A stretch of DNA of 64,000 nt, taken from positions 1 to 64,000 of IMG/VR virus record IMGVR_UViG_3300032038_000062. The stretch is one strand, 5' to 3'. The notes under the pieces were generated by a model, which worked only from the letters and a program-made list of their open reading frames with translations, did no database searches and was not told the origin of the DNA. The stretch is from a virus. Both the position numbers and the translations under genes were made by a program. Shown one piece after another: positions 1,911 to 40,366 of this stretch; the stretch's first letter is position 1; every line of letters begins with the position of its first letter.

Positions 1911-1922
1911 ACGAATACCTCC

Positions 1923-4688: not shown

Positions 4689-4913
4689 TATAGCCTCCTA
4701 TTATAATTTTCCCTCTATTAATATTATACCATAGGGTACATTAGTTTGTCAATTTTTAATTTCGTGAAAATTTATGATGTTAAATTTCAATTTTTAATTT
4801 CGTGAAAATTTTGTAGCAGACCCCGTAGGTCGATTACCAAAAATTGGCAAATTTCCTAAAATATACCCCTGTCAATGGGTAAAAAAATAAAGCGGCATAA
4901 AACCGCCTTACTT

Positions 4914-5237
4914 TTATATTATTTCATTTTCCTCGGTTAGATAAATTAAAAACCAGTATAAAATAAATTTTCTATCCTTAATACAGTTGTCAAGAAAAAA
5001 CCATTTGACCTCTGTTTTTGTTTTTCCTCTTGTAAATTCCGCCAAAAGTATTTTGATTTCTTTTCCGGTCTTTTCCTCTAAAAAATCAATGTTGTATTGT
5101 TCCTCTTTCGGGTTAATGATAATATCACCTTTCCAGTATTCCGTAATAAAATCAATTAAATAGATATAGCTTTTTGTCATTGTTAAAACCCCTTTACTTA
5201 AATAAAAATGTTTTGTTTTTCTTGCTAGGGCTTGCAA
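4914..5237 (-). CDS. Hypothetical protein. The real start is probably MTKSY near 5188.
   Basis: ORF plus conserved leader CATTTTTATTTAAGTAAAGGGG before the internal ATG. Terminator hairpin downstream at 4880-4912. Confidence 0.4.
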   Translation of the reverse strand: MQALARKTKHFYLSKGVLTMTKSYIYLIDFITEYWKGDIIINPKEEQYNIDFLEEKTGKEIKILLAEFTRGKTKTEVKWFFLDNCIKDRKFILYWFLIYLTEENEII

Positions 5238-5266
5238 GGCATTTCACCTTGCAAGCCTTATTTTTT

Positions 5267-5899
5267 TTACTTGCTGATACCGTACCATTCAATAAAATCA
5301 TCAAAAGTAATTCCATTAAAAAATAAATCACTTGTAAACTTTTCAAACTTGCTCTTGCTATTAGTAAAAGATTGTATTGACAAAATGTCATAATACCATG
5401 CGCCGCCGCTCTTTTTAACAGTATTCATATAGCCGCTAACTTTCTTGCGAATTAAGCCGTTATTTTTAAGGATATCCATAAAGTCGGATATCTCAAAAAA
5501 TAACACTTGCTTTTTAACGCTCTCTGACGGATAAAACCGCGGTACATACGCGATAAAATCACTTTTCATTAAAGGGCTTGAAGCGATAGAGCCGTCGCTA
5601 TTAAGTGTCGCCAAAGTGCCCGCGCCGCTCTTAATTTCAATTTTAACTTGCTTTCTTTTTTCGCCGTCTTTTTGATACTTTATGCAATCAAATTTGTTAT
5701 TGCCTTGTACCTCTTTAGAGCGGCTATACAAACCTAATTCAAAGTTAACAGCGCGTTCTAAAGCTCTGCCCTCAGCGCCGCTATTAACGCCTTTTTGCGC
5801 TTTTACATGAACATTCACATTTTGCGCGTATTCTAGATACTGTGCAAGCATAGCCGCCGCGATTGCTTTTTTAGTATTGCTGTTGTTGTTGTTTTTCAT
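5267..5899 (-). CDS. Hypothetical protein
   Basis: 210-aa ORF. Shares the 5' leader CATTTTTATTTAAGTAAAGGAG with the 4914 gene. Confidence 0.5.
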   Translation of the reverse strand: MKNNNNSNTKKAIAAAMLAQYLEYAQNVNVHVKAQKGVNSGAEGRALERAVNFELGLYSRSKEVQGNNKFDCIKYQKDGEKRKQVKIEIKSGAGTLATLNSDGSIASSPLMKSDFIAYVPRFYPSESVKKQVLFFEISDFMDILKNNGLIRKKVSGYMNTVKKSGGAWYYDILSIQSFTNSKSKFEKFTSDLFFNGITFDDFIEWYGISK

Positions 5900-6139
5900 T
5901 TTGTTTTTCTCCTTTACTTAAATAAAAATGTTTGGTTTTTGTGCTTTCGCTGCGCTTATTCTATCAGAAAAAAAGACCTTTTACAAGTATTTTCTTGTTT
6001 AGTCAATAATTAAATATTGCACTTTATTAAAACCGCAAGATAGTATTCGTCAATATACACAAAATGAAGTCTAACAAGTCTAAACGGTCTAAAAATGGCT
6101 TATCTATGCGGTTTTAGACCTATTAAGTCTAATACTAAT

Positions 6140-6168
6140 TTGCATTTATCGGGATAATGTGGTATAAT
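6140..6168 (+). promoter_or_regulatory. First early promoter, TTGCAT-N17-TATAAT
   Basis: -35 at 6140-6145, 17-bp spacer, -10 at 6163-6168, extended TG. Sits after the divergent intergenic region. Confidence 0.55.
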
Positions 6169-6191
6169 AATAAGCGAAATGGGGGATTAAA

Positions 6192-6419
6192 ATGAAAATC
6201 TTTGTGAAAAATGACAGTAAGAAAAAGTATTACAATAATGTAATAAACCGCTTAAATAATTACAAAAATGTAATAGAAAAGTTACAAAATGCCCTTAAAA
6301 TATTACAAAAAAGTTACAAGGTTGTAATAAGTATCTCCCTCTGGGCGCTCGACCGGTGTCTGCCGGACAGGTGCGGGCGTATGCCCTCAGTGGCGTCCCG
6401 TGTCAGTATATACGTCTAA
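6192..6419 (+). CDS. Hypothetical small protein. The 3' half runs through a GC-rich hairpin island.
   Basis: 75-aa ORF with RBS GGGGGA. Coding status of the GC-rich second half is uncertain. Confidence 0.4.
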   Translation: MKIFVKNDSKKKYYNNVINRLNNYKNVIEKLQNALKILQKSYKVVISISLWALDRCLPDRCGRMPSVASRVSIYV

Positions 6420-6638
6420 AGGAGCTGCGTTTGGGGACCTGGGAGCTGCGTTTGGCAGCGCGGGCAGCTGCGTTTCAAAAGAAGCTACGCTTTAAAGGGA
6501 GCTACGTCTAAGCGGAGCGTTGCCGCTGTAGGAGCTACAATTTTAGACTATTAAAGTCTAAGAGGAAAAAATAAACTATTGACTTTTTTATAAAAGAGTG
6601 ATATAATAATTATAGAATAAAGAAAGGGGATAAACCTA

Positions 6639-6905
6639 ATGGCAAGATACAAACTTACTTTTACAGACACAGAAACTGGTACAACTTATTTGCTTGATGA
6701 TAATATGCCCAGCTATGACAGCGCGGTTTTTGCCGCTTTGGATTATGTCGCGGACGGCGCAGTCAAAGCGGGCGAAAGTGGCGACACTGCCGCAGAAGTA
6801 AGGCTTTTTAACGCTGGACTTTCCATGGCTATAGAGTTCGCCGGAATGGCTGGGCTTGACTGCGCGAGTTGCTGCGGCTTTACCATCACAAGGAAAGGAG
6901 AATAA
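6639..6905 (+). CDS. Hypothetical early protein
   Basis: 88 aa, RBS AAAGGGGA, preceded by palindrome plus promoter. Confidence 0.55.
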   Translation: MARYKLTFTDTETGTTYLLDDNMPSYDSAVFAALDYVADGAVKAGESGDTAAEVRLFNAGLSMAIEFAGMAGLDCASCCGFTITRKGE

Positions 6906-7037
6906 AAGAGATTGCGCCAAGCGCAATCTTTCTGCCCTTAGGCTTCTAAAGTCTAAATTATTCTACTTTTAATCTTGACAATATTATTATAGTATGATAT
7001 AATATAGATAAAGTAAAAGAAAGGAAAAAGAGTAATT

Positions 7038-7298
7038 ATGGTTTATGTAATGACGTATCATACGCCTGTGGGCAACTTTTTGAGTGCTTGGAGTTCAAGG
7101 GACGCCGCTATTGAAGCTGTTTACACAATGATTGTAAATGGATATAAAGAAGCAAAGGCAGAAGGAAATGACAAAGCGGCAAACGAATTTTATGATATGG
7201 GATTGAAAGCTAATAAAGCATTTGCCGCTGGCAAGAATGACTTTGAGAGATGGCAGATTATTCCCTTGGAGATGGATACATTAGTTCAAGACGACTAA
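7038..7298 (+). CDS. Hypothetical early protein
   Basis: 86 aa, RBS AAAGGAAAAAGAG, own promoter. Confidence 0.55.
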   Translation: MVYVMTYHTPVGNFLSAWSSRDAAIEAVYTMIVNGYKEAKAEGNDKAANEFYDMGLKANKAFAAGKNDFERWQIIPLEMDTLVQDD

Positions 7299-7326
7299 GG
7301 TTATAGGTGACCATAACCTTTTTTCT

Positions 7327-7381
7327 TTAGACTTCTAAAGTCTAAGCAGAGATTGACAAAAGAAAAGAGATATGATATAAT
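7327..7381 (+). promoter_or_regulatory. Palindrome TTAGACTTCTAAAGTCTAA (7327-7345) plus early promoter TTGACA-N17-TATAAT (7353-7381)
   Basis: Representative of about 21 such units. Read directly. Confidence 0.7.
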
Positions 7382-7407
7382 ATGGATAGAATAAAGGAGG
7401 AGATATT

Positions 7408-7764
7408 ATGAAAGAAAAGAAAAAGAAAGAGAAAGATAACTTCCGTTTCTTTTTCATGACTATAAGTATACTTACTGCTGTAGTTGTTATTCTTGTGGGA
7501 TTTGTCGTAGTGATTTTGGAGTATAACACATCAATAGCGAGAATAAAAGTAAACATCTATCCGCTTTTAACCACAGTCACAGGAGTAGACAGAGATAAAG
7601 ACCTCGTAACCGTAGAAGATAATAACGGCTTTATCTGGCAGTTCGAAGGCGCAGATGATTGGGAAGAAGGCGACTTATGTAATTGCCTTATGGATAGCCA
7701 AGGAACAGAAAAAATTTTTGATGATGAAATTATAATGACAAAATATGAAAGCGGCGCGAGGTAG
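7408..7764 (+). CDS. Hypothetical membrane protein (one TM)
   Basis: 118 aa, RBS AAAGGAGGAG, hydrophobic segment ILTAVVVILVGFVVVIL. Confidence 0.55.
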   Translation: MKEKKKKEKDNFRFFFMTISILTAVVVILVGFVVVILEYNTSIARIKVNIYPLLTTVTGVDRDKDLVTVEDNNGFIWQFEGADDWEEGDLCNCLMDSQGTEKIFDDEIIMTKYESGAR

Positions 7765-7904
7765 CGCCCTTTCTTTCTTATTTTAGTTTAGACTTCTAAA
7801 GTCTAAGATTTTCTTGGAATTTTTTGGAAAAAATTTTTTGGAATTTTTCTTAAAATATATTAATTTCCTAAAATTAAGGGTTGACATTTTCCCATAATTA
7901 TGGT

Positions 7905-8100
7905 ATAATATAGACAATGAAAGAGAGAGAGAAGGGAATGATTCCAATGTGGTTGTAATTCACTAAACAATTCAATCAATAAACCATTCGATTGATAAAC
8001 CAGATGTACCAGACAGAAAGGGTTAAAGCAATGGCAAGAGATTCTCCCAATTAAGATAATATTGATATTTTGCTACGGAGGGGAATAATCCCCTTCTTTT
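7905..8100 (+). ncRNA. Candidate small non-coding RNA (promoter-to-terminator unit with no ORF)
   Basis: Early promoter GGGTTGACA...TGGTATAATATAGAC at 7868-7905. About 180 nt with only a 13-codon ORF. Strong terminator GGAGGGGAATAATCCCCTTCTTTTTT at 8073-8100. Confidence 0.45.
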
Positions 8101-8263
8101 TTATGTATTTTTAGACTTCTAAAGTCTAAGGACAAAAAATTATTTTGAAAAAGTAGTTGACTTTTTTATAACTCTATGATATAATATAGATACAGTCAAG
8201 GGAGATAGAAACCGACTGAATATAAAATTTGGGTGGCGACCGTCGCTAAAGGAGTTTTTATAA

Positions 8264-8616
8264 TGGCAGAAAAGAAGTACACACAGAGAGATTTTCTCAC
8301 AGATGTAATTAATGGAGTATTTAACGAAACCGTGACCGGCTACGCTCAGGAGCGCCTCAATAAGCTCGACGAGAAGAACGAGAAGCGCAAGGCAGAAACT
8401 TCTGCTAATCAGCTTAAAAACGCCCAGCTTTTGGAGGACTTCGTAACATTCATCACCGAGCAGGAGGAGCCGCAGACCACAACCGAAATTGCTAACCACT
8501 TCGGCTTGTCAACTCAGAAGGTTGCCCCGATTATGGCTAACGGCGTAAAGACCGAGCGCGTGACCGAAACCACGAAAACGGTCAACAAGAAGAAGTACAA
8601 GGCATACACCGCCTAA
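8264..8616 (+). CDS. Winged-helix DNA-binding protein, paralog A
   Basis: 117 aa from ATG 8264 with RBS AAAGGAG. C-terminal TTTEIANHFGLSTQKVAPIMANGVKTERV resembles a wHTH recognition helix plus wing. Paralog of 11769..12116. Confidence 0.6.
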
Positions 8617-8802
8617 GAAAGGAAAGGGTTACAAGTTTGTAACCCTTTTTCTCTTTTCCCTCCTTAGACTTCATATGTCTAACATATTTTTTATATTTTT
8701 AATAAAATATTAGTAATTAATTTGTATAATTTTTTGACTTTTATAGAAAAAACAATTATAATAATAGTAGAAAGAATGGAAAGAAAGGGAGGTTATAGCT
8801 CA

Positions 8803-8973
8803 ATGATTTGCAAAGTCAAGGAAAGTTTTGAACTATCAGAAATAGAGAAAAAAGTTTATGCTGATTTCCAAGAAATTCTAATTCAAATGAAAGAGGTTGC
8901 AACTGTTTCTGATACAAGACATTTAATTGAAACTATTTATTGTGACTTAGTAACTTTAATACCTCAGGTTTAG
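8803..8973 (+). CDS. Hypothetical small early protein
   Basis: 56 aa from ATG 8803 with RBS AAAGGGAGG. The upstream part of the 8722 ORF overlaps the promoter. Confidence 0.45.
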   Translation: MICKVKESFELSEIEKKVYADFQEILIQMKEVATVSDTRHLIETIYCDLVTLIPQV

Positions 8974-9075
8974 ACTTTAGAAGTCTAAGAAAATAGTATT
9001 TTTTCAAAAAAATAATTGACAAATAAAATTTTTTATGATATAATAATTATAGAAAATTGAAAGGAGGCTATTTTA

Positions 9076-9468
9076 ATGGCTACATCAAAAACTGCTTTGC
9101 GTGAAAAAGTGAGAAATTTTTATCTTGATAAAATCACAAAATTTCTTGACGGCGAGGGCGAAGAAATTTTGATGATTAAAACAAATCAATTTTGTTTTCC
9201 TGTGGTTGATGATGAAGGGAATGAATTGTTTATAAAAGTTGTTGTTTCTGTACCGAACGGCTCGAAGGACAAGAACGGTGCTACAATTCCCTTTGACGGC
9301 TACGGAGAGGCAATTGGTTATGAAACTGAGAAAAAGCAAAAAGAGGAAAAGAAAGCAGAGAAGGCAAAGAAAAAAGCCGAAAAAATGGAGCGTGACAGAT
9401 TGGAACGCCAGAGAAAGAAAGAACAGCAGGCAAACAAAGAAAAATACAGAGAGGGAAAAGGGGCATAA
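9076..9468 (+). CDS. Lys-rich early protein, paralog A (C-terminal K/E/R tail ending KGKGA)
   Basis: 130 aa. Paralog of 14235..14597, sharing the start of the N-terminal domain and the tail. Confidence 0.6.
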   Translation: MATSKTALREKVRNFYLDKITKFLDGEGEEILMIKTNQFCFPVVDDEGNELFIKVVVSVPNGSKDKNGATIPFDGYGEAIGYETEKKQKEEKKAEKAKKKAEKMERDRLERQRKKEQQANKEKYREGKGA

Positions 9469-9578
9469 AAACCCCTTTTTTCTCTAAAGGAATTTTAGAC
9501 TTCTAAAGTCTAAACAAGGGTTGACTTTTCTTTTATTGTATGATATAATATAACTACAGTAAGAAAAGGAGTGATTAA

Positions 9579-9779
9579 ATGTATATTGTAAAAAGACCGC
9601 AAGTTGTTTTAACAACTAAAGACCTTCAGGCAATCCGCACAACTATGCTGATATTAGATGAAGTTCTCGACAAGGACGATAACCTTGTGCTTGATATTGA
9701 TACTTCTTCAATAGCAAGGGCTTATGAAACTTTATGCGAGTTTGTTAAAGATTGCGAGATAGATGAGGAGGAAGAATAA
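9579..9779 (+). CDS. Hypothetical acidic early protein
   Basis: 66 aa, RBS AAAAGGAG. Confidence 0.5.
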   Translation: MYIVKRPQVVLTTKDLQAIRTTMLILDEVLDKDDNLVLDIDTSSIARAYETLCEFVKDCEIDEEEE

Positions 9780-9960
9780 AATGATGATTATTTGCGCAAT
9801 TTTTATTGCTGTCGGCATTATCGCTACGGTTGTCACCGCTATTAAGATTGATTTAAGTCACGACCCCACGCCGCCGCTGATTTTGTTTTTCTTTATAAGC
9901 GCAATCGTTACATTAAGCGCTATTGTCAGTTTTATCGTTGGTCATTTTACAGGAGTATGA
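9780..9960 (+). CDS. Small membrane protein (two TM)
   Basis: Start MMII with RBS GAGGAGG in the stop region of the upstream gene (translational coupling). Confidence 0.5.
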
Positions 9961-10101
9961 AGGTAAAACTTCATACTTTTTTTTACTATCTGTTTAGACT
10001 TCTAAAGTCTAAACTTTAATAGCAAGAGAAAAAAATTTTTTGAAAATGTATTGACTTTTTTATAATACTATGATATAATATAAATACAGTAAAGAAAGGA
10101 T

Positions 10102-10560
10102 TTGATAAACTTGAAAAGAAAAATTTGGTTCGATATGGATGGAACAATCGCTAACCTGTACGGCGTGGAAAATTGGCTTGACGATTTGAGGGCAGAAGTC
10201 CCACGACCGTACAAAATCGCAAAAGCAAATGTTAATTTGTCCCTTCTGGCTCGTTATCTCAACAAGTTGAGGGCGGGCGGCTATAAAATCGGCGTTATTA
10301 GTTGGACTTCCATGAAGTCAAGCCGAGAATATGAAGAAGAAGTCGCCGCCGCAAAAATTCATTGGCTTATCAATCACCTCCCTTCTGTTTGGTTTGATGA
10401 AGTTAATATTGTACCCTACGGCACAGAAAAAAATCTTTTCAATAAAGGGCGCGACCTGCTTTTTGATGATGATATCAGAGTAAGGGAAAAATGGACAGGC
10501 GAAAGTTATCCTCCCGAACAGATTTTCGACGTACTGCACAACTTGATTTCGGCGCTTTAA
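10102..10560 (+). CDS. HAD-superfamily 5'(3')-deoxyribonucleotidase-like hydrolase
   Basis: DMDGT motif I (IWFDMDGTIANLY). Size and layout resemble NT5C-type nucleotidases. The start may be TTG at 10111. Confidence 0.55.
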   Translation: MINLKRKIWFDMDGTIANLYGVENWLDDLRAEVPRPYKIAKANVNLSLLARYLNKLRAGGYKIGVISWTSMKSSREYEEEVAAAKIHWLINHLPSVWFDEVNIVPYGTEKNLFNKGRDLLFDDDIRVREKWTGESYPPEQIFDVLHNLISAL

Positions 10561-10672
10561 TGCGCTGAAATCTTTTTAGAAAATTTAGACTTCAAAAGTC
10601 TAAGAAAGAATAGAAAGGGGTTGACTTTTCTATAATTGTATGGTATAATATAGATAAGAAAGGAGGAGAAAT

Positions 10673-10912
10673 ATGAATATTCAATTAATCAGTAATGTAA
10701 AAATTAATTTAGAACCTTCAGAACTTAATGCTATAAATACTACAAAAAAAGTTTTAGAAAGAATTGAAGAAATTATTGATAGCGTCAAGAATGCCAATTT
10801 TTGGGAGTTTTTAAGCGAATATTATGATAATGATATTATAGAACTGCTTGACGATTTCCAACAAGATGATAGGTTAGAACGCCGCATTAAAGAATATCTC
10901 TGGGAGATATGA
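10673..10912 (+). CDS. Hypothetical early protein
   Basis: 79 aa, RBS AAAGGAGGAG. Confidence 0.5.
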   Translation: MNIQLISNVKINLEPSELNAINTTKKVLERIEEIIDSVKNANFWEFLSEYYDNDIIELLDDFQQDDRLERRIKEYLWEI

Positions 10913-11037
10913 CGACGAGGAAGAAGATTTTTAATCTTCTTCTTTTTTCTTTAGACTTCAAAAGTCTAAACTATAATTGACAAAAAATTTTATTTATGAT
11001 ATAATATAAATACAAAAAAGGAAAGCTGGGAGAAAAA

Positions 11038-11166
11038 TGAAAGAAAAACTTAACGAAATCGAAAAAGAAATTAAAGAAAAAATGGAAGAAAGCATATATA
11101 ATGACGATATTTATATTACTGTAACTATCGTTTTCGAAGTATTACACTCTATATTAGACGATTAGG
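11038..11166 (+). CDS. Small early protein (42 aa)
   Basis: Own promoter TTGACA..TGATATAAT at 10978-11013, RBS AAAGGAAAG, ORF below the 60-aa track cutoff. Confidence 0.4.
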
Positions 11167-11270
11167 CGGTCGCCGCTTTGTGATTTAGACTTCTAAAGTC
11201 TAAATTTTTATTGACCTATTAAATATATTATGATATAATATAAATGTAATAAAGAAAGGAGATTGTTTTA

Positions 11271-11582
11271 ATGTGTAAAAAAACTAAATATAAAAATTAT
11301 CGAATTGGAAAGTATCTTTTCACTGTAGAAATAAAAAAAGGCTGTGACTGTTTTGGAGATTATTTTTACATCACCATAAGAGATAGACACGACGCGCCGC
11401 GGAACTTTTTTGAGAGAATTAAACTAAAATTTAAGAACGAATATGCTATTGGAGATTCTTGCTGGCGCCCACTTTTTGACAAAAAAAATTTTGAGCGCTT
11501 TATCCTTGATAAGTTAGATTTTATTGTAGACAATAAATTTAACTTAGAAGAAGCAAACATTTTATGGGAAAATCTCGAATGA
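11271..11582 (+). CDS. Hypothetical early protein
   Basis: 103 aa, RBS AAAGGAGA. Confidence 0.5.
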   Translation: MCKKTKYKNYRIGKYLFTVEIKKGCDCFGDYFYITIRDRHDAPRNFFERIKLKFKNEYAIGDSCWRPLFDKKNFERFILDKLDFIVDNKFNLEEANILWENLE

Positions 11583-11768
11583 GATTTTCTTTTTGATTTT
11601 CTTTTAGACTTACAAAGTCTAAACCCCTAAATTTTTTTTGAAAAAAGTATTGACTTTTTTATTAAAATAGTTTATAATATACTTGTAAGGTTGAGAAAGG
11701 AAAGAAACCTTAATGAAACCTACAAAATAAAAATTTGGGTTGCGACCTACGCAAGAAAGAGGTTTATT

Positions 11769-12116
11769 ATGGCAGACAAGTACACTCAGAGAAATTTTTT
11801 GACAGACGTTATCAACGGCAATATTACCGAACAGGTGACCGCCTACGCCGAGGAAAGACTTGCGAAACTTGACGAGAAGAACGAAAAGCGCAAGGCTGAA
11901 ACCTCCGCCAATCAGCTCAAAAATATCCAGCTCGGCGAGGATATTGTCGCCTTCGTTACCGAGAACGGCGCGCAGACTACTTCCGAGATTGCAAGACAGT
12001 TCGGTGTTTCTACTCAGAAGATTGCGCCTATCACCAACGCACTTGTGAAGGAAGGCAAGCTGACCGAAACCACAAAGACGGTAGACAAGAAAAAGTATAA
12101 GGCGTTTACAGTTTAA
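11769..12116 (+). CDS. Winged-helix DNA-binding protein, paralog B
   Basis: 115 aa from ATG 11769. About 60% identical to 8264..8616, with a conserved leader and stem-loop upstream. Confidence 0.6.
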   Translation: MADKYTQRNFLTDVINGNITEQVTAYAEERLAKLDEKNEKRKAETSANQLKNIQLGEDIVAFVTENGAQTTSEIARQFGVSTQKIAPITNALVKEGKLTETTKTVDKKKYKAFTV

Positions 12117-12237
12117 CCGCCGAGGGGTACGCAAGTACCCCGACTTTTTTTAGATTTTCTTAGACGTTGTAAGTCTAAGATTAAATTGACTTTATTTTAT
12201 TTTATGGTATAATATAAATAATGAAGGAGGTAATATA

Positions 12238-12636
12238 ATGAAAATTCAGTATATTGCAAATGACGGAAAAATTTTTGATAATGAGTTTGACTGTCGGGAA
12301 TATGAGTCAAAAAAACAAGTAGATGAATTTCTCAATAAAAGAGAGCTAATCTTCTTGTCACGCTCAGGAGAAGTTCTTTTCGGAGAGATTGACGATTGCG
12401 CCGAGAGAGCTACTTATATTTTTGTTAATAGCGAGGCGGCACTTCAAGCTCTTTGGGGAGAAAATGAATGTCAGCGAGAAATCCGCCCACCCGAAGAAGG
12501 ATATTGGTATTATGATTATGAGTATGAAACCTGGAGAAGCATGAAAACTCAGGTTGAAATATTAGAAAATGAATTAGCTGAACTCAATAAAATTTATGAC
12601 CGCTTTGATTATCTTATAAGAAAACCTCAAGACTGA
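12238..12636 (+). CDS. Hypothetical early protein
   Basis: 132 aa, RBS GAAGGAGG. Confidence 0.5.
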   Translation: MKIQYIANDGKIFDNEFDCREYESKKQVDEFLNKRELIFLSRSGEVLFGEIDDCAERATYIFVNSEAALQALWGENECQREIRPPEEGYWYYDYEYETWRSMKTQVEILENELAELNKIYDRFDYLIRKPQD

Positions 12637-12747
12637 GGTTTTCTTTTTATTTTATTCTTAGACTTCTAAAGTCTAAAGTTAAATTGACTTTTTTAATCTT
12701 CTGTGATATAATATAGTTACAGTAAAGGAAAGAGAAAGGAAAATAAA

Positions 12748-12990
12748 ATGAAAGTAAAAACTAATAAATTTTGGGAAATTATCAACTATCTGTGTTTGAT
12801 TGGTCTTGTTATCGGTCAAATTACCGTAGGCTATGCTTACATCTTTGCGCAAATTATCTATCTGATTTGTAATACCGCCTCCGTTATTCGTGATATTAAA
12901 TTGCGGTTGCCGCCCTCTAATATTGTTAGGGACGCTTGCTTTACTGCAATTACTATTGGCTTAATTATTATCCGAGCGTTTTTCGGCTAA
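12748..12990 (+). CDS. Small membrane protein (two TM)
   Basis: 80 aa, RBS AAAGGAAAA. Confidence 0.5.
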   Translation: MKVKTNKFWEIINYLCLIGLVIGQITVGYAYIFAQIIYLICNTASVIRDIKLRLPPSNIVRDACFTAITIGLIIIRAFFG

Positions 12991-13215
12991 AATATCCTCC
13001 TTTACTTTATAGGTAGGCGTGGGCAATAGTCCACGCTATCCTATTAAAATTAGTTTAGACTTCCAAAGTCTAAGCCCACTCGTTGGGCGGTTAGCATAGG
13101 CTAACTTTTATTTTCTTTGAAAAAACTATTGACAAAACCGAAAAAATATGATATTATATATATGTCAGTTAGAGAGCGAAGGCAAACCTAAATTGACAGA
13201 AAGGAAAGTGATAAT

Positions 13216-14110
13216 TTTGAATTTTGAAAACAAAATTGACCGAAGAAAAAAATATTATTTGGTTTTTGATTGTGAAACCGCGACTTTGCCCTTCGCGGCA
13301 ACCATTGAAGAACCAAAAGACAAACAAAAAATTGCTATTGCTAAACCATTAATTTATGACTTGGGATGGCAGGTAATTGACCGCAAAGGGAATGTATATT
13401 GCCGCCGCTCGTATTTAGTCAGCGAAATTTTTTCCGTTCCTGCGGTTTTTAATACCGCGTATTATGCAAGCAAGCGCCCGATTTATCTTGATAAATTGGC
13501 AAAAGGTGAAATTATCCTGACCGATTGGAAAACAGCCACTGCAAAACTAGAAGAAGATTTACAAAAGGTTGAAGCGGTCGGCGCTTATAACTCAATGTTT
13601 GACTATAAAAAAGCAATTCCATTTACAGAAAAATATATCAAGATGTTATATTCTCCATACTATTATAAATGGGAAGAAAAGCAAATTGAGCATTGCAAGC
13701 ACATTTTATCAACGCCATATTATAAAAGTGATAATGAATTTAACCCTGAGATTTTCGAATTTAGGGATAAACAATATGCACTTTTTGACCTTTGGGGGCT
13801 GAGTTGCCGCCACCTCTTAAACAATAATGAATACAAACAAACTTGCATTAATAACGAATGGAAAACGGCAAGCGGGAAATTTTTCAAAACAAGCGCAGAA
13901 ACCGCATTCAGGTTTTTAACAAAAAACAATGATTTTATAGAAAGTCACACGGCTATTGAAGATACTATAATTGAGAGCCAAATTTTGACCGAAATTATAA
14001 AGCGCACAAAAAACAAATTTGAATTGGGGATTATTTATTTTCCCTTCCGTGAACTCGGAACAGTTAAAGATTTTGAAAACACACACGACAATATTTTTGA
14101 TTTATTCTAA
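13216..14110 (+). CDS. DEDDh-family 3'-5' exonuclease (DnaQ-like), paralog A
   Basis: Exo I LVFDCETATLP, Exo II YNSMFDYKKA, Exo III HTAIEDTIIES. Start TTG or GTG near 13207-13216 after RBS AAAGGA. Conserved leader shared with paralog B. Confidence 0.7.
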
Positions 14111-14234
14111 AAGAAAAAGGTTACAGAAATGTAACCTTTTTCCTCCAAAACTACCTTAGACTTTGTAAGTCTAAACCCTATTTGACTTCTCTATAATTAT
14201 ATAGTATAATATAGATAATAAAGGAGGTAATAAT

Positions 14235-14597
14235 ATGGCAAGTCGTTCTCAATTAAGAGCTAAAATCCGTCAAAAATATCTAACCCAAATTCGTGATTTT
14301 CTCAAATCACAAGGCGAAGAAGTTTTACTGACAAAAAGTAACCAACTGGCGATTCCAACCTGTGATGACGAAAACAACGAAGAAACACTTACAATTACTT
14401 TTGCTGTCCCTCTCGGCTCTAAAGCAGATAATGAACCTTTTGACCCATACACCGCTGCGGAAGTTTACGCACAAAATACAGAAAATAAAAGGGTTGAGGC
14501 TGAAAAGAGAGCAAAAGCAAAAGCAGAAAAAATTAAAAGAGATAAGGAGTACAGAGAAAAACAAAAAGCAAACAAAAAGAAAGGAAAAGGCGCATAA
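14235..14597 (+). CDS. Lys-rich early protein, paralog B
   Basis: 120 aa; same architecture and KGKGA end as 9076..9468. Confidence 0.6.
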   Translation: MASRSQLRAKIRQKYLTQIRDFLKSQGEEVLLTKSNQLAIPTCDDENNEETLTITFAVPLGSKADNEPFDPYTAAEVYAQNTENKRVEAEKRAKAKAEKIKRDKEYREKQKANKKKGKGA

Positions 14598-14788
14598 GCC
14601 TTTTCTTTTTAGAAGAATTTAGACTTTAGAAGTCTAAATCTTATGCTGCGGCGGTTAGCATAGACTAACTAAAAAATTTTTTATAAATTTATAAAAAAGT
14701 ATTGACAAATTAAAAAATCTATGCTATAATTGTATTGTCAGTTAGGGAAAGACGTTAAATCTAAATTGACAGAAAGAGGTTGATAATT

Positions 14789-15670
14789 TTGAATTTTGAA
14801 AAAAAACTTGACCGCCGCCGCAAATACTACCTTGTATTTGATTGTGAAACGGCAACTTTACCCTACGCGGCAAATTTTGAGGGTAAGGCAAGACAGGCAA
14901 TTTCTATTGCTAAACCATTAATTTATGATTTGGGTTGGCAAGTGATTGACCGTCAAGGCAATATTTACCGCCGCCGTTCGTACCTTGTTAGCGAAATTTT
15001 CAGCGTCCCTGCGGTTTTCAATACTGCATATTACGCAAGTAAACGTCCGATTTATCTCGAAAAATTAAATAATAACGAAATTATCCTGACCGACTGGAAA
15101 ACAGCCACCGCAATATTAGAAAAAGATTTGCAAGAGGTTTGCGCCGTTGGTGCTTATAATTCAATATTTGACTTTAAAAAAGCGATACCATTTACAGAAA
15201 GATATATAAAAGCGTTGTACTCACCGCACTATTATAAATGGGAACGGCGGCAAAACGAAATCTGCGACCGAATCGCAAGCGGAGAAATTCAAGAGAATAA
15301 TCAGACTTTTGACCCAGAAAATTTTTTCTTTAGAGAAAAAAATTATCCGTTGTTTGACCTTTGGGGCTTAAGTTGTAAACACTTATTAAATAATGATGAT
15401 TATAAAAAATCTTGTATTATGAATAAGTGGGAAACGGCAAGTAAAAAATATTTCAAAACTTCGGCGGAAACTTCATTTAGATATTTAACAAAAAATGATG
15501 ACTTTGAAGAAGCGCACACAGCTATTGAAGATACAATAATTGAGAGCTTAATTTTTGCCGAAATTGCAAAACGTACTAAAAATAAATTTGAAATGGGAAT
15601 TATTTATTTTCCGTTTAGAATTTTAGGCACTGTCAAACAATTCAAGGAACTAAACGATATTTTCGATTAA
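14789..15670 (+). CDS. DEDDh-family 3'-5' exonuclease, paralog B
   Basis: About 70% identical to paralog A; motifs LVFDCETATLP / YNSIFDFKKA / HTAIEDTIIES. Start TTG at 14780 or 14789. Confidence 0.7.
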   Translation: MNFEKKLDRRRKYYLVFDCETATLPYAANFEGKARQAISIAKPLIYDLGWQVIDRQGNIYRRRSYLVSEIFSVPAVFNTAYYASKRPIYLEKLNNNEIILTDWKTATAILEKDLQEVCAVGAYNSIFDFKKAIPFTERYIKALYSPHYYKWERRQNEICDRIASGEIQENNQTFDPENFFFREKNYPLFDLWGLSCKHLLNNDDYKKSCIMNKWETASKKYFKTSAETSFRYLTKNDDFEEAHTAIEDTIIESLIFAEIAKRTKNKFEMGIIYFPFRILGTVKQFKELNDIFD

Positions 15671-15798
15671 AGAAAGAAAAGGTTACAGAAATGTAACCTT
15701 TTCCCCCCCAAAATTATTTTAGACTTTGTAAGTCTAAATCCTATTTGACTTCTCTATAATTATATAGTATAATATAGATAATAAAGGAGGCGAAGATA

Positions 15799-16074
15799 AT
15801 GGTAGGCTATAAAATTATGAAAAATTTTGATAATTATAGATACACTTATACAGAAACAGTAGCAATTTGCTTATCTTTTGAAAGGGCAATACAATATCTT
15901 ATTGAAGAATGCGGCTTAGATGAAAATTATATCTATTCTGATTTTTATGGAAAAACCACATTAAAAGACGCATTCGGTAAAAACTGGTTATCAGAATTAA
16001 TTAATAATAAAATAACTTATTTTTCTTTTGAAGATTGTGATTATGAGATTGAAGAATGTAATATTTTAGAATAG
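15799..16074 (+). CDS. Hypothetical early protein
   Basis: 91 aa, RBS AAAGGAGG. Confidence 0.5.
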   Translation: MVGYKIMKNFDNYRYTYTETVAICLSFERAIQYLIEECGLDENYIYSDFYGKTTLKDAFGKNWLSELINNKITYFSFEDCDYEIEECNILE

Positions 16075-16360
16075 GGCACTCAGTGCCCCTTTTTATTTTA
16101 GACTTACGAAGTCTAAACTTTTCTAACCTTAGACTTACAACGTCTAAACTCATCAAATTTTCTCTCCCTCGTCAAACTTCTCACTATCTCGCGCCCAGTC
16201 ACTTCGTGTGTGTGTCCCCTAGTCTCCCTTTTCTAGCTTTTCTCCTGAAATGAGCTACGTTTTAAAATTTGAAATTATAAGGAAAAAGCGCTATAATATA
16301 TATAGAAAGTTAAGAAAGAATTAAAAGACTTTCAATCTATAAAAAAGAAAGGGAAACTAA

Positions 16361-16708
16361 ATGGAAAAGAAGATTACAGAAAAAGAGGTTATTAAAAGAC
16401 TTTCTCTCGGAGAATGTGACGAGGAAATGATTGAGTGGGCAACAGGTAAATATGAGAAGCTGTTAGCCGCCGAAGAGAAGAAAGCCGAGAAACAGAAGGA
16501 AAAAGCTCTTGAGAATAAGCCGATTATCGAAGCAATCGAAAGTGTACTCACAGATGAATACCAACCCGCATCAGTATTTGCTAATGCTGCGGACGTTAGC
16601 GTTCAGAAGATTGTCCACGTTCTAAAGGCTATGGATTCGGTAGAAGTCGGAGAAATTAAGATTACCGGAAAAGGAAAGTCAAACGGATATAGAAGAAGAG
16701 AGGTTTAA
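16361..16708 (+). CDS. Hypothetical early protein (last gene of the cassette)
   Basis: 115 aa, RBS AAAGGGAAA, promoter TTGAAA-N17-TATAAT at 16268-16296, terminator at 16700-16730. Confidence 0.5.
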   Translation: MEKKITEKEVIKRLSLGECDEEMIEWATGKYEKLLAAEEKKAEKQKEKALENKPIIEAIESVLTDEYQPASVFANAADVSVQKIVHVLKAMDSVEVGEIKITGKGKSNGYRRREV

Positions 16709-16709
16709 C

Positions 16710-17650
16710 CTCTCTTTTTTTTATACCCTTATTATTATATTATTATAATATTATAATATAATATAATATATAATAAAAAAATATTATAATAAAAATTTGA
16801 AAAAAAGCTAGAGCTGGGGCAGCACCAAATTATACCAAATCATACGATTTCATACCAAATCACACTATTTTATATAACTTTATACCTTCTCATATCCTTT
16901 TATATTCCCTTATACCCCTTTATATCCCCTTATACCAAACTATACAATTCCCTATAACCTTATACCAAACCATACACTATTCTCTACTACTAAACCCCTT
17001 TAATTCCTACTAAACCCCTTTATCTATTTCTAAACTAATTCCCCTTTGAACTTCCTCTTCTGAGTACTCGTCAGTTAGGAAAGACTCGAATCCTATACCC
17101 TTCCACTAATCTACCTAGATACGCCTATTGTAAGCAAACACAACGTTTTTCTTTTCGCTTAGAGCACAATCCTATTATTATAATATTATAATAAAACGTA
17201 TAAGCCCACCCATACGTTTTTCTTATACGCTTTTCTACGAATCCTATTATTATAATATTATAATATTATAAGCCCACTTATACGCCCAATTATCAGCTTT
17301 TTTATACGCTCCTATTGGAATCCTATTATAATAATATTATAAGAAAGATTATAAGCCCACTTATACGCTCTTCTACGAATCCTATTATTATAATATTATA
17401 ATATTATAATAAGATTATAATAGGATTATAATAAAACGTTGTTGTCTCGCCTAGCGCTAAAGCGCAAGGCTCAACCTATGGCTACGCCGTTGTCGCCTTA
17501 TGCTCTTCGAGCAACGGCAAAAACGTCTTCGCACAACGGGGAAGGAAGAAAACAAAGGGAACACAATTCTATTATTATATTATTATATTATAATATTATT
17601 ATAATATTTCTTAATTTGATAATAAGTATTTTTTTCTAATAATTCCTACA
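16710..17650. repeat. AT-rich repeat region at the convergence of early and leftward transcription
   Basis: Multiple palindromic ATTATAATATTATAAT elements. Four direct repeats of about 65 bp (AATCCTATTATTATAATATTATAATA...TAAGCCCACYYATACG) at about 17160-17440. Short TTATACC / CTTTATA repeats at 16830-17040. GC-rich island at 17440-17560. Confidence 0.7.
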
Positions 17651-17926
17651 AAATTTTAATCCCAGAATTCTTGGAAAATTTTTGGAAAATTTTCTATCCC
17701 ATAAAAGAGATTTCTGGAAAATTTCCCATTATTAGGTCGCGCCCGTCCGCATAAAATCGTTCAAATCCTAAAAAAAAGAAAGAGAGGACTAGCCTCTCTT
17801 TTATTCATATCTTATATATTCTTTTGAAGGAATAGTTATATCATACTCTGTTTGGCGAAAGCTTGTGCCTTGTAATATCTTCACAAACGTCAGCATGAAC
17901 ACATTCTTTACAAGTTGCCATAACAA

Positions 17927-20674: not shown

Positions 20675-20679
20675 ATTTC

Positions 20680-20760
20680 ATTTCCTTTCTTAACTTTTCT
20701 ATATATATTATATCAAAAAAAATATAAAAAATCAAATTAAAAAGCCCTCTCGTAAGTAAG
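20680..20760 (-). promoter_or_regulatory. Conserved minus-strand promoter TTGATT-N17-TGaTATAAT with leader ATATATAGAAAAGTTAAGAAAGG; rho-independent terminator hairpin (AAGCCCTCTCGTAAGTAAGAGGGCTT) at 20729-20758
   Basis: Reverse complement of 20686-20737 reads TTGATTTTTTATATTTTTTTTGATATAATATATATAGAAAAGTTAAGAAAGGAA then ATG. Confidence 0.65.
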
Positions 20761-20770
20761 AGGGCTTCTT

Positions 20771-21634
20771 TTACACATACTTGTCCAAGCCGAATTCCTT
20801 CATAATCTTCTCGATATTGAAGTTATTTTGCATACAATCCTCAAGGGTAATGTAAACGCTATTTTCATCGAGAATTTTGTTCTCTACCACATACTGATGA
20901 AGTTCATCGTGACTCAATTTTTTCATTATATCCGTACCGTAACCAAAACTATAACCATAGTCAGTTAAATTAGGAAGAGTTTCAAGATACTTAAATCCAA
21001 TTCTACGCTCCCAAGAAGCGTTACAAAGAGGAAAAGTAACTCGCTTCAAATCAAGCGGCTCTCGCCAATTCTTAACATCAACTGTACAGAACACATTTTC
21101 TTTACTTTGAGTTGCTGAATAGAGAAATGCTTTAACCGCAACTCGAATACCAGAAAGTTCAAGACGATTAATTATAGAACAAATTGCAATTCCGCCTTTT
21201 ACAAAATCTTGGGCATCTGTACCGCAACAACTATTATTAGCATAACCAATAGTAAGAACACGGTTCTTTCTCATTACTTGGTCACGAGTCATCATAGAAT
21301 TGGGAAGACCAAGAATAGCATTGGGAACACAAGGAGCAAAACCAACAATTCCAGTTTTCATACCGCCCGCATTGACCTTTAAATCCTTATTATTCCTTAC
21401 AACACCGCGGTCAATATCTTTAATTGGACCCTCCCAGCCCTTTTCAAGGAGATTAAATGCTTCTTCAAGACTTTGAGTTCCAGTCCAACTAGTATCACTT
21501 TTTCCAGAAGAGTGCTCGTCCGACATAGCCTTATTATTTTGCGTACGTTTTCCAAGAGTTTGGACAAGATTACGTACGCCAGAAAAGTGCTCAAATAACA
21601 ACTTACTCTTTGTTACTTCACTATAATCTCCCAA
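20771..21634 (-). CDS. Hypothetical protein, downstream partner of the AAA+ ATPase
   Basis: 287-aa ORF 12 nt after the ATPase gene. No clear MIDAS motif. Confidence 0.5.
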   Translation of the reverse strand: MGDYSEVTKSKLLFEHFSGVRNLVQTLGKRTQNNKAMSDEHSSGKSDTSWTGTQSLEEAFNLLEKGWEGPIKDIDRGVVRNNKDLKVNAGGMKTGIVGFAPCVPNAILGLPNSMMTRDQVMRKNRVLTIGYANNSCCGTDAQDFVKGGIAICSIINRLELSGIRVAVKAFLYSATQSKENVFCTVDVKNWREPLDLKRVTFPLCNASWERRIGFKYLETLPNLTDYGYSFGYGTDIMKKLSHDELHQYVVENKILDENSVYITLEDCMQNNFNIEKIMKEFGLDKYV

Positions 21635-21646: not shown

Positions 21647-22852
21647 TTAAATACAAGTTTTTAGAGCCTTATAATATTTATTGCTCTTATACTCCATATC
21701 GTTTGCGATGATGTTACGGTCATCAGTAGACAAGCCCTTCAAGAGAGAGATATTAAGAACAGTCTTAATATCCATAGTACCTTCGAGCTTAGCAATGCGC
21801 TCAATCGCACGATAGGTTGCAAGGTGATGGATATGTGCCTTTTGTACTGCCTTACGGAAATCGTGGATAAAGGTAATCAACTCGTTGTTGCCATTTGCAA
21901 CAGCTTCCTCAATCTTAGGAGAATAGTCAATCTCCATCAAGGCATACCGGTCAAGAGAAGCGGCGTCAAGCTGATAACGACCGGTATACTCAATATCGGC
22001 GCCAGTACCGTAAGTGTTACCCGCAGCGATTACTCGGAAATCTTCGTGCGCAGTAACCTGACCAGTAGGAAAGTCAAAGTAACCGTTTGCGATTGCCGCA
22101 TTCAAGATAATAAGAACTTCGGGAATAGAACCGTCCATCTCGTCGAGGAAGAACAAGCCGCCATCTTTAAAAGCCTTATAAAAGGCAGTTTCGTGGTAAT
22201 GACCGTTAGCGTCGATAAAACCAGTCAACTTATACTCCTGAGTTACAGCGTTGGTAAAATAGAAGTTCAAACCTAAACCAGCGGCTACTTGCTGTGCAAG
22301 TACGTTCTTACCAGTGCCAGCGGGCCCCGCCAAGAAAACGGGAATTGCGGCAGAAACAAGAGTGAGTACGTCATCAAACTTCTCGTGGGTTACGCCAGTA
22401 ATCTTATTAATTGCATTGGGAGTAACAATTTCATGGCGCTGAGGAAGAAAACCAAACTCGTCAATGAGTCTTTTACGAACTACAGGGTAAACTTCCTTAA
22501 AGATAGACTCAGTAGAAGCCTCCGCAACAGTCTTGAAGAATAGCTCTTCCAACTTGCCACCAAGACCACTGCTTTCTCCACCGGCGGGCACAGTAACACC
22601 AGACATAGGAACTCCATCATAGTTATGACGCATCTTTTCAAGAGCCTTTTCCGCAGCGTTCTTATGGAAAGCCGCACGCTCAATTACAGGAGCGGGCAAA
22701 CCTTTTCTACCAGCTTCAATGCTGTTAAACTTATTACGAGGGTCGTAGTAGTGTCCCTGAAAAAGCAAGTAAAGATTCTTGCCGCCCTTTGCGAACTCCT
22801 CAGTATCAATTACATAGGTAATATTATCTTTTGCATAAACTACAGTAAACAT
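21647..22852 (-). CDS. MoxR / CbbQ / CobS-like AAA+ ATPase (AAA_5 type)
   Basis: Walker A LAGPAGTGKN, Walker B LFFLDEMD, sensor region. About 170-aa N-terminal extension of unknown function. Confidence 0.7.
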   Translation of the reverse strand: MFTVVYAKDNITYVIDTEEFAKGGKNLYLLFQGHYYDPRNKFNSIEAGRKGLPAPVIERAAFHKNAAEKALEKMRHNYDGVPMSGVTVPAGGESSGLGGKLEELFFKTVAEASTESIFKEVYPVVRKRLIDEFGFLPQRHEIVTPNAINKITGVTHEKFDDVLTLVSAAIPVFLAGPAGTGKNVLAQQVAAGLGLNFYFTNAVTQEYKLTGFIDANGHYHETAFYKAFKDGGLFFLDEMDGSIPEVLIILNAAIANGYFDFPTGQVTAHEDFRVIAAGNTYGTGADIEYTGRYQLDAASLDRYALMEIDYSPKIEEAVANGNNELITFIHDFRKAVQKAHIHHLATYRAIERIAKLEGTMDIKTVLNISLLKGLSTDDRNIIANDMEYKSNKYYKALKTCI

Positions 22853-22981
22853 ATGTATTATCTTCTCCTTTCAGTATAGCCTTTTTATTTATTGCTTTCT
22901 TAACTTTTCTATATATATTATAACAGAAAAAATATAAAAAGTCAATATGTTATATTGCTTTTTTAATAAAAAGGCGGGAAA

Positions 22982-26532: not shown

Positions 26533-26751
26533 ATTTATTTCCCTTTCTTAACTTTTCTATAATTATTATATCAAAAATATATAAAAAAGTCAAAAAGAAA
26601 AGGTTATCTTTTTAGTAAGATAACTAGTTTCTTTAAATATCTAACAATCCATTAATAAACAATAACAAAATTAATATAATAAACATACTAAGCCCAATCG
26701 TCTTCCATTAAAGTTCCACCGTTTTCTTCGAGCACTTTCTCTAATAACTCA

Positions 26752-30940: not shown

Positions 30941-31183
30941 TCACTCTTCCTCCGCATAGCAAATACTGGTAACATCTTTTGAACGAATAGGATATATTTC
31001 TTTTTCTTTAAGATGATTTTCTTTTACTCCATATAAGACTTTTCCAATCTTTTCTTCAAGAACTTCCACTTTTAATTTCTTAATACCTTCTAAAGTCCAA
31101 CCATTGGGTGGTGTTGCTAATCGGTATAATGTACTATCGCCGCAGTTTACAAAGACTTGATATTTACTCTTATCCATTATCAA
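30941..31183 (-). CDS. Hypothetical protein
   Basis: 80 aa with the conserved promoter upstream. Confidence 0.45.
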   Translation of the reverse strand: MIMDKSKYQVFVNCGDSTLYRLATPPNGWTLEGIKKLKVEVLEEKIGKVLYGVKENHLKEKEIYPIRSKDVTSICYAEEE

Positions 31184-31278
31184 TTCCTCCCTATTATTCT
31201 ATATATATTATACTAAAAAATATATAAAAAGTCAAAAAAAAAGAGTAGCCATTACAGCTACTCCTTTCTAAAAGTGCC

Positions 31279-35933: not shown

Positions 35934-36030
35934 ATAATTTCTCCTTCCTTATTTTCTATATATATTATATCAAAAATAATATTAAAAATCAAATATATTT
36001 ATTGATGATGAATACATATAGAAAGTTAAG

Positions 36031-39752: not shown

Positions 39753-39826
39753 TGGCGGCGCCGCCCAGACTCGAACTGGGAAGGACAGAATCAAAATCTG
39801 TTATGTTACCATTACATCACGACGCT
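39753..39826 (-). tRNA. tRNA-Gln (anticodon TTG)
   Basis: Hand-folded cloverleaf; anticodon loop TTTTGAT; A1/C72 unpaired (Gln-like weak 1:72); CCA encoded. Confidence 0.55.
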
Positions 39827-39935
39827 ATATCTATGGACTTTCTGATAGATGGGCAACTTCAACGAGAGGTTTTCTATCTTTTTGGTATCCATTACGAGGG
39901 CTTATCCCAACCAACCTATCACGTGAGTAGGAAAT

Positions 39936-40198: not shown

Positions 40199-40366
40199 CA
40201 TGTTACCTCGCATTTATATAAAATGAAGTAGATAAGGATTTGCACCTTATATGTGCCTTAGTATCCTCCAAAAAAATCCCGTACATAACGTCTCGGTTTT
40301 AATTACAGTCTGTTACCCACAGCAACGCTTGCGTCTACCTATTCCGCCACTACTTCATATATCTAC

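Follow-up and report, generated by a model that had tools for sequence, protein, structure and literature searches.

Within the 64,000 nucleotides analyzed here (positions 1 to 64,000 of IMG/VR virus record IMGVR_UViG_3300032038_000062; hereafter the window), a gene-free zone of 1.06 kb (16717-17778) has a hairpin terminator on either side and stands where two gene blocks converge. We regard this zone as probably a conserved, cis-acting, protein-binding non-coding module, and sequence comparison supports its being a real, selected cis-element, as its layout is kept in diverged relatives. The same layout recurs with diverged sequence in more than 14 lineages of an uncultivated phage family, and the retention of layout where sequence has diverged argues for a function rather than filler. 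As to which function, a reading made from the letters of this DNA (the sequence-only reading) had named a replication origin, a packaging site or a terminal region. Several readings remain, and we tentatively favor one in which the zone is a cis-acting boundary that would close an early host-takeover block of about 10 kb, as the counterpart of Repeat Region 3/iss of phage T5.

Conservation of the layout was traced by several routes. In relative L004 (IMG/VR) the same parts stand in the same order between homologous flanking genes, and the sequences can no longer be aligned; this locus was found with L001-L009 via the downstream 160-aa gene, which is mosaic, and L004 alone of that set carries the module. 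A search for two spaced copies of ATTTTCCARRAA returned 15 more loci that share proteins of the plus-strand block and hold two to seven exact matches each of the family motif cluster, and further loci were found through the adjacent winged-helix protein; the pattern TATAAGCCCACYYATACG, sought in viral contigs, gave three unrelated matches. The layout was seen in L004; in L023, L043, and L105; in L137 and L138; in L111, L113, and L114; in L169; and in L155. Read from the left, the inspected lineages have a small gene of the winged-helix family, a terminator, AT-rich repeats, a core of the form TTGAxx-N17-CA(C/G)C with a run of G directly ahead of its CA, a pyrimidine-rich tract that is poor in G and runs for 100 to about 1000 nt, palindromes of the TATACG(TA) type with GC-rich spacers in between, a TTTTYGGAAAAT cluster, a terminator and, usually, converging genes. 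The core was seen in about 14 lineages, and its 17-nt spacing is identical in six of them (the window, L004, L023, L039, L074, and L105); in the 150 nt that follow, every hit with this 27-nt geometry has at least as much C as G on the same strand, and most have at least twice as much. A functionless spacer, in which slippage-prone simple repeats would accumulate between two terminators, could produce a hypervariable array and a varying number of units, but it is scarcely credible here, since order, core geometry and strand polarity recur in more than 14 lineages, although the adjacent proteins of these lineages share no more than 30-40% identity.

The tract that follows the core shows most directly which properties are held. 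Where the sequence-only reading had seen a field of TTATACC repeats, the repeats are real but form a strictly 10-bp-phased array, with only 2 G, against 67 C, in 227 nt; no other stretch of this length in the window is so depleted of G. Its self-identity is 0.51 at a lag of 10 and 0.60 at a lag of 20 (maximum 0.47 in 2000 shuffles), and all 13 YATAY pentamers share one 10-nt register; across the zone, YATAC[CG] occurs 14 times on the plus strand and once on the minus strand, against 1.7 expected, an enrichment of about nine-fold. Ten contigs from different samples, looked up by exact protein, encode a 115-aa winged-helix protein identical to that beside the zone. Their identity to the window is 99.3% from terminator to core and 94-97% right of the tract, compared with 62-73%, and 30-80 gap columns, within the tract itself, yet every variant holds the 10-nt register and has at most four G. 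Five different tract variants stand beside near-identical flanks (the fifth is from a metagenome contig; a metagenome scan with the core gave one bridging contig), and L014 has five of the repeat units of about 72 bp that lie farther right, instead of four. By this comparison the tract appears to change fast by whole units, with its register, its pentamer and its lack of G constrained and the remaining sequence free; being constrained in these respects only, it would drift quickly by unit slippage. Natural variation thus separates the parts that must stay (core geometry, 10-bp register, pentamer and one-strand absence of G) from those that may change. In one clade, seen in L137 (10620-11420) and L138 (10700-11520), both from IMG/VR 3300045988, the tract is expanded, with about 0.5 kb almost free of G within about 0.8-0.9 kb of C+T-rich sequence, in which TTTTGGAAAATTTT and TTCTACGATTTTTT motifs are interspersed.

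Table 1. Parts of the module, and of the early block beside it, in window coordinates.
Feature	Position	Strand	Details
TTAGACTT-N3-AAGTCTAA palindromes (examples)	6544-6562, 7329-7347, 8115-8133, 14157-14175, 15718-15736, 16099-16117		
115-aa winged-helix protein, last gene of the early block	16361-16708	+	AlphaFold predicted local distance difference test (pLDDT) 90
Left terminator	16696-16716	+	9-14 bp hairpin then T8, -16.3 kcal/mol; closes the early block
Left AT block	16727-16806	.	80 bp, 96% A+T, overlapping TATTATAA palindromes
Core motif AAATTTGAAA-N17-CAGCACC	16793-16826	+	GGGGC just ahead of CA; G-poor tract begins directly after
G-depleted YATACNNNTT array	16824-17050	+	227 bp, 10-bp phase, hypervariable between strains
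Non-repeated segment	17051-17167	.	117 bp, contains GAGTACTC; conserved in close strains (L014 and L018, 94-95% identity)
Four units of about 72 bp	17168-17436	+	each with AATCC and a TATTATAATATTATAA palindrome
GC island	17437-17560	.	124 bp, 53% GC against 34% in the window; CCGTTG/CAACGG repeats
Right AT block	17561-17660	.	10% GC, TATTATAA-type palindromes
Three TTYTTGGAAAATTT repeats	17667-17724	+	motif cluster common to the whole family; served to find relatives
Right terminator	17779-17801	-	9-bp hairpin, T runs on both strands; closes the converging minus-strand block

Most of what the sequence-only reading had described in the zone is borne out, and the positions are collected in Table 1. 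The kilobase without open reading frames (ORFs) between converging units stands: from the stop of the last plus-strand gene to the minus-strand genes ending at 17801 and 17927, the longest ORF that starts with ATG has 53 aa, and the ORF list holds a single TTG-initiated ORF of 66 aa for the zone. The many self-complementary elements are likewise real, with 40 matches to TATTATAATATTATAA (at most two mismatches) in the window against 1.2 expected, 33 of them within 16730-17606, and the GC-rich island and the bidirectional terminator were both recovered. Its four direct repeats exist as units whose heads (AATCC-TATTATTATAATATTATAA) lie at 17168, 17240, 17319, and 17378 (spacings of 72, 79, and 59), but the ending that it had assigned to all of them, TAAGCCCACYYATACG, is present in only three (17201, 17269, and 17352), and the fourth unit runs into the GC island; three of the four also hold GCCCACYYATACG and further copies of YATACG or CTACG. 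To its account are added the left terminator, whose hairpin resembles that of the right terminator such that the two are direct-repeat partners, and the three TTYTTGGAAAATTT repeats. A short GC-rich core, GCTGGGGCAGCACC, separates the left AT block from the phased tract, and inverted AT arms of 42 nt, with 86% complementarity, enclose the GC island. The sequence-only reading had also suggested that the zone could act as an RNA polymerase sink, but its TATAAT-like stacks lack −35 partners of the kind found at the real promoters of the phage. Two identities considered for parts of the module were set aside: CodY boxes for the TTGGAAAA repeats (the zone has just two weak matches and no enrichment) and a sigma-54 or other alternative-sigma promoter for the core (no conserved −12 or −10 element).

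The genes to the left of the zone give the favored reading its context. Window genes are arranged in blocks on the minus strand (87-5899), the plus strand (about 6.6-16.7 kb), the minus strand (17.8-61.8 kb) and again the plus strand (from 62.1 kb). In the early block (about 6.0-16.7 kb), nearly all small genes between about 6.6 and 16.7 kb are served by individual near-consensus sigma-A promoters (TTGACn-17-TGnTATAAT), and many also by individual terminators. The palindrome TTAGACTT-N3-AAGTCTAA occurs in at least 15 copies in 6050-16300, each just upstream of the −35 element of an early promoter, and looks like an operator for shutdown of the entire early block. In L004 and L141, related palindromes occupy the corresponding position at the promoters. 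Early proteins include one of HAD type with a DMDGT motif, which matches the PHROG "5′-3′ deoxyribonucleotidase" (E 5.5e-9; its Pfam NT5C match is below threshold), and two paralogous members of a family whose annotation in Enterococcus phage H1 is exodeoxyribonuclease. The early block has the profile of a host-takeover module, and amounts to 10-12 kb in genomes of 109-135 kb, or about 8-10%.

The last gene of the early block encodes the 115-aa winged-helix protein, a homologue of which lies directly upstream of the module in every lineage examined. Its AlphaFold model has a 42-residue helix (H21-62) followed by a C-terminal winged helix built of two helices and a β-hairpin, and Foldseek and profile searches with it found only generic winged helix-turn-helix regulators; weak matches to the CodY helix-turn-helix are generic winged-helix similarity. 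At least two paralogues are encoded in the plus-strand block (8233-8616 and 11691-12116), which makes three winged-helix members overall. The family has 2179 homologues in metagenomes, several on contigs of 109-135 kb, none in cultured phages, and a single match in 185,579 bacterial and archaeal genomes, on a 6.6-kb contig of a metagenome-assembled genome. Free-standing NUMOD4/HNH_3 endonuclease genes occur at differing edges of the early block by lineage (L168-L176, e.g., L169 3425-4129; also L155 797-1567), and in one clade such an insertion lies between the winged-helix gene and the module.

We propose, tentatively, that transcription and possibly DNA entry are staged at this boundary. Host RNA polymerase arriving from the very strong early promoters would be halted at the zone, with the hairpin acting first; behind the hairpin, the G-free, C-rich tract has the composition and polarity of a Rho-loading (rut) site. 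Small phage winged-helix proteins would occupy the phased sites and so form a nucleoprotein block, which would mark the end of the first-expressed and probably first-entering segment of DNA; as in T5, entry or expression of the remaining genome would wait for early proteins.

Among known systems, the zone most resembles Repeat Region 3 with the injection stop signal (iss) of T5, which lies at the inner end of the left terminal repeat. In the T5 record (AY543070), the rightward pre-early genes end at 9157 and are followed by a terminator, iss is annotated at 9140-10149, the terminal repeat measures 10,219 bp, and converging genes begin at 10,936. Repeat Region 3 of T5 (9194-10409) comprises nested direct repeats, inverted repeats and palindromes whose order is conserved among T5-like phages, and includes DnaA boxes (Davison). 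In T5 and in the window alike, a block of about 10 kb of small early genes, with strong host-type promoters and small DNA-binding proteins, is followed by a terminator, then by 1.1-1.2 kb of untranslated nested repeats and palindromes, and then by converging genes. Both regions contain a strongly strand-asymmetric tract: the most C-depleted 190 nt in the first 12 kb of T5 (6% C, 40% G) lie at 9992-10181, inside the end of the terminal repeat at 10219. Both also have TTTCYRGAAA-type palindromes clustered at the far end, T5 having six in 10325-10716 and nine in its first 12 kb against 2.9 expected. This T5 cluster (about 400 bp) lies just outside the left terminal repeat and does not figure in the section of Davison's preprint that was consulted. 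The product of the T5 pre-early gene dmp, a putative deoxyribonucleotidase, shares an N-terminal DxDGT motif with the deoxyribonucleotidase-like protein of the window, and the early block takes up about 8-10% of the genome here, where the T5 terminal repeat takes up about 8%. As among T5-like phages, the order of parts is kept among the relatives of the window; sequence, and one part, are not.

A number of observations weigh against this boundary reading. The DnaA boxes of T5 (paired TTWTNCACA and variants) are missing from the zone at up to one mismatch, the polarity of the strand-asymmetric tract is opposite in T5, and the repeat regions of T5-like phages are reported to be highly conserved in sequence, whereas the tract here is hypervariable. 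No homology was found between the winged-helix family and T5 A2, T5 Dmp and the window protein have only the DxDGT motif in common, and the large terminase subunit (TerL) belongs to the SPbeta/Geobacillus E3 group and not to the T5 group. That the small winged-helix proteins are candidate binders of the repeat classes is proposed from adjacency only, and staged entry and terminal repeats are proposed for the family from sequence layout alone. Assemblies read through the module, and the 119,908-bp contig of L139 has the same sequence at both ends, which is read as the overlap of a circular assembly with arbitrary ends. In phage phAss-1, the genes after a comparable non-coding region run in the same direction, not toward that region.

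The kind of element proposed is known from T5; its construction differs, in that an unrelated, uncultivated family here combines a fast-evolving, G-free phased array with a core of fixed geometry. We know of no prior description of this combination. Complex untranslated edges of early blocks have, to our knowledge, been characterized closely in T5 and its relatives alone, and even in these phages the injection-stop mechanism is unsettled. The module gives a handle for experiments on the closing, timing and staging of an early program, as well as a search pattern for the family. In a more specific version of the boundary reading, the family would have evolved T5-like staged infection independently: the host-takeover block would enter and be expressed first, with the module as stop signal and inner edge of a terminal repeat, the core as a site-specific DNA end or nick and the array beside it as a platform for winged-helix proteins that hold the DNA. 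We consider this version unlikely; if true, it would make the zone the earliest known case of an iss-like element beyond the T5 group, and one whose sequence logic is directly legible.

Part of the same evidence would be explained by an insulator of transcription without a role in DNA entry, replication or packaging, in which twin terminators, a Rho-loading tract and protein roadblocks would spare the converging block antisense read-through from the very strong early transcription. Such an insulator would make sense of two strong hairpin terminators downstream of at least 15 near-consensus promoters, and the C/G ratio of the tract stays at 17 or more in each 78-nt segment, with 44 YC dimers and a place on the early-gene sense strand in every lineage. 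As at a rut site, the tract is C-rich, nearly free of G and unstructured, follows directly on a transcription unit in the sense orientation, keeps its polarity in the family, and is constrained in composition rather than in sequence. About 80 nt suffice for a rut site, however, and a phased pentamer is not required, while the tract reaches 100 to about 1000 nt in relatives, has a phased pentamer and is embedded in a larger module. Termination does not require 1 kb of DNA, the core, four palindrome units, a GC island and a TTGGAAAA cluster, no matching tract faces the converging block, and the strict phasing and one-strand pentamer point to a binding array at the level of DNA; an insulator alone is therefore unlikely.

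The repeats and AT-rich blocks that fit a boundary also fit a lytic replication origin, in which the AT blocks would melt, the repeats would bind an initiator (a winged-helix protein or a host factor) and the polypurine/polypyrimidine tract might stabilize an R-loop primer. Verified lactococcal phage origins are likewise non-coding repeat regions. As in iteron and AT-rich origins (lactococcal ori/"Per" and lambda ori), the zone is non-coding, combines direct and inverted repeats with an AT block, and adjoins a gene for a DNA-binding protein; the 80-bp AT block (96% A+T) stands beside a GC-rich core, several classes of repeats are oriented and phased, the terminators insulate the zone from read-through, and the phage has an RNase H-like gene. 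Unlike at such origins, the cumulative GC skew of the window reaches a maximum at 16-17 kb, that is, at the zone (a weak test of an origin, since skew in the window also tracks transcription), and departing forks would meet converging transcription head-on on both sides. No DnaA box (TTATCCACA) occurs within one mismatch in 16700-17800. The only DNA-metabolism genes recognized, RNase H-like and deoxynucleoside monophosphate kinase-like genes at 62.5-63.5 kb, start at the divergent point at 62 kb, about 44 kb from the zone, and none were found in the flank at 17.8-39 kb. With its 115 aa and at least two paralogues encoded nearby in the early block, the candidate binder is unlike known initiators, and the supposed iterons vary freely in strains whose winged-helix protein is identical: in a check for a linked initiator among these strains, the pentamer and phase were kept while the rest of each unit varied. 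The claim of an origin made in the sequence-only reading thus agrees with the AT block and the repeat classes but not with the skew maximum, the head-on convergence, the lack of a DnaA box or the distance to the DNA-metabolism genes, and we judge an origin rather unlikely, if the strongest competitor of the boundary reading.

Contig ends bear on the suggestion that the zone is a site of packaging. Here a pac, cos or terminal-repeat cut would fall at the GC-rich core as cleavage site, and the phased array would bind the terminase small subunit; in lambda, cosB lies beside cosN. The zone resembles cos and pac regions (lambda cosQ-cosN-cosB; SPP1 pacL-pacC-pacR) in its GC-rich core, AT-rich repeat flanks and one-sided phased array, and the core, of 10-12 bp in an AT context, has a partner motif at fixed geometry. 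Three independent contigs from two distant lineages end exactly 18 nt after TTGAAA: L015 and L022, from different projects, end at window position 16820, and L115, whose winged-helix protein is about 35% identical, ends at the homologous base. A fourth contig, L171, ends 5 nt further, such that about 4 of the 14 contigs that end within the module share one spot of about 10 nt. This pile-up may reflect a physical end or nick at the core. On the other hand, L017 and L021 stop together within the variable array, variants diverge from 16827 onward, and the core is spanned by many contigs, so the pile-up is adequately explained by branching of the assembly graph where variation sets in. IMG/VR contig ends are enriched near the module but lie at differing points, and look-ups of contigs reaching the module from the right, or covering the module near 6 kb described below, gave one uninformative contig each.

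The position of the terminase genes also argues against packaging from the zone. TerL is encoded at 87-1910 on the minus strand, 15 kb away on the far side of the early block, whereas a cos or pac site would be expected in or beside the terminase gene region, and cleavage at the zone is putative. The pac site of SPbeta has been mapped by restriction to the vicinity of yonR-yonP, where the late operon with the terminase genes begins. The circular scaffold of phAss-1, whose TerL is 34% identical to that of the window, was cut by its authors according to PhageTerm; this cut falls at the head of a block in which homologues of the window's early genes follow after about 4 kb and are oriented inward, a position that also agrees with the boundary reading. 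Both sites correspond to window 5900-6630 and not to the zone. By analogy with these two phages, 5900-6630 is the likelier packaging start. Were packaging to begin at that site and proceed in the direction opposite to the early block, that block would be packaged last and would enter first, and the distance of the zone from the entering end would be 10-12 kb, or about 8-10% of the genome. Packaging from the zone is accordingly quite unlikely: of the packaging site or genome end that the sequence-only reading had suggested, the accumulation of contig ends at one spot remains, set against the distant TerL and the two phages that point elsewhere. A terminal region is plausible in one sense, that of the inner boundary of an early block that enters first or is terminally repeated, as in T5, and in no other. 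A comparison of the zone with the 5900-6630 module, as the two possible boundaries of a terminal repeat, found only AT-rich chance 10-mers in common, and nothing usable was found in the literature on termini or origins of Enterococcus phages H1, EF1, and VRE9 and Lactococcus phage 949. Should the zone prove to be an origin or a DNA end, the same conserved parts would define that element.

The 5900-6630 region is itself a second repeat-dense non-coding module, at the divergent junction of the terminase-containing and early blocks, with TTACAA repeats (6210-6330), a GC-rich part (6330-6400) and five or six copies of GAGCTGCGTTT about 20 bp apart (6423-6530). Clusters of AGCTGCG-type repeats precede the winged-helix gene in L113, L139-L142, L041, and L044. 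In phAss-1 (L109, OQ749652), the non-coding regions 5463-6842 and 10231-11371 have tRNA T-arm-like sequence (GGTTCGACTCCCGTACACTCCACCA in one) and then a CT-rich, G-poor tract, and one of them also has phased A-tract repeats (AAAATGGCT/AAAATCGTC).

Two further functions were considered for the zone. A non-coding RNA locus might yield a G-less, C/U-rich RNA, the purine-rich antisense of that RNA with many Shine-Dalgarno-like runs or, at the GC island, an RNA with structure; the strand asymmetry would indeed give an unstructured RNA rich in anti-Shine-Dalgarno-like or Shine-Dalgarno-like runs, and the TTGAxx of the core resembles a −35 element with an A tract. No −10 element follows 17 nt after the core, however, and the sequence of the tract is not conserved. 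An Rfam 15 scan of 15.5-19 kb gave best matches with E of about 1 and less than half the gathering score, and RNA folds of the GC island on the two strands were not better than those of shuffles (z −1.8 and −1.5), such that a non-coding RNA is very unlikely. The zone also resembles plasmid centromeres (R1 parC-ParR; tubC-TubR) in having about 13-20 short sites spaced by one turn beside a gene for a small DNA-binding protein, and TubR is a small winged-helix protein. A partition centromere was nevertheless rejected: no partition NTPase was recognized near the zone among the early-block proteins scanned, and the winged-helix family, with its one match, is essentially absent from the 185,579 genomes, which makes a plasmid-prophage lifestyle unlikely.

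With a family that is metagenomic, has no member in cultured phages and matches one genome contig, these phages appear to be virulent and uncultivated. The window appears to come from a large, virulent, siphovirus-like phage of an uncultivated family with genomes of 109-135 kb, and the host appears to be a Firmicute, possibly of the Oscillospirales/Acutalibacteraceae. Samples that contain this phage include ERZ27256903, SRR16606026, and SRR35418865. Searches in near and distant modes among 50,697 phage records found no relative of the zone or of the window at the level of DNA. At the protein level, the nearest cultured relatives of TerL (30-41% identity) are Geobacillus E3, Enterococcus H1 and VRE9, and SPbeta-type and other large Bacillus siphoviruses. 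The size of a 2292-aa protein (50538-57416) beside a tail-fiber-like gene suggests a tape-measure protein.

The window also holds 24 tRNA genes, clustered on the minus strand at 39.7-48.5 kb (39753-48500); the call at 43764-43837 has a four-base anticodon and no amino-acid assignment. A 490-aa protein (60364-61836, minus strand) matches DUF2828/DUF7788 and the PHROG 850 "RNA-binding protein" (E 2e-123), and an AAA_5 ATPase (21647-22852) adjoins a DUF7192 protein (20771-21634), both on the minus strand. Ahead of many minus-strand genes of the window, a conserved promoter-plus-leader cassette of about 60 nt (TTGACTTTTTTATA...TGATATAATATATATAGAAAAGTTAAGAAAGG) is repeated (20675-20770, 22853-22981, 26533-26751, 30941-31278, 35934-36030, 42455-42530, 47317-47413, 48700-48771, and 48925-48990), and this cassette is also present in L004.

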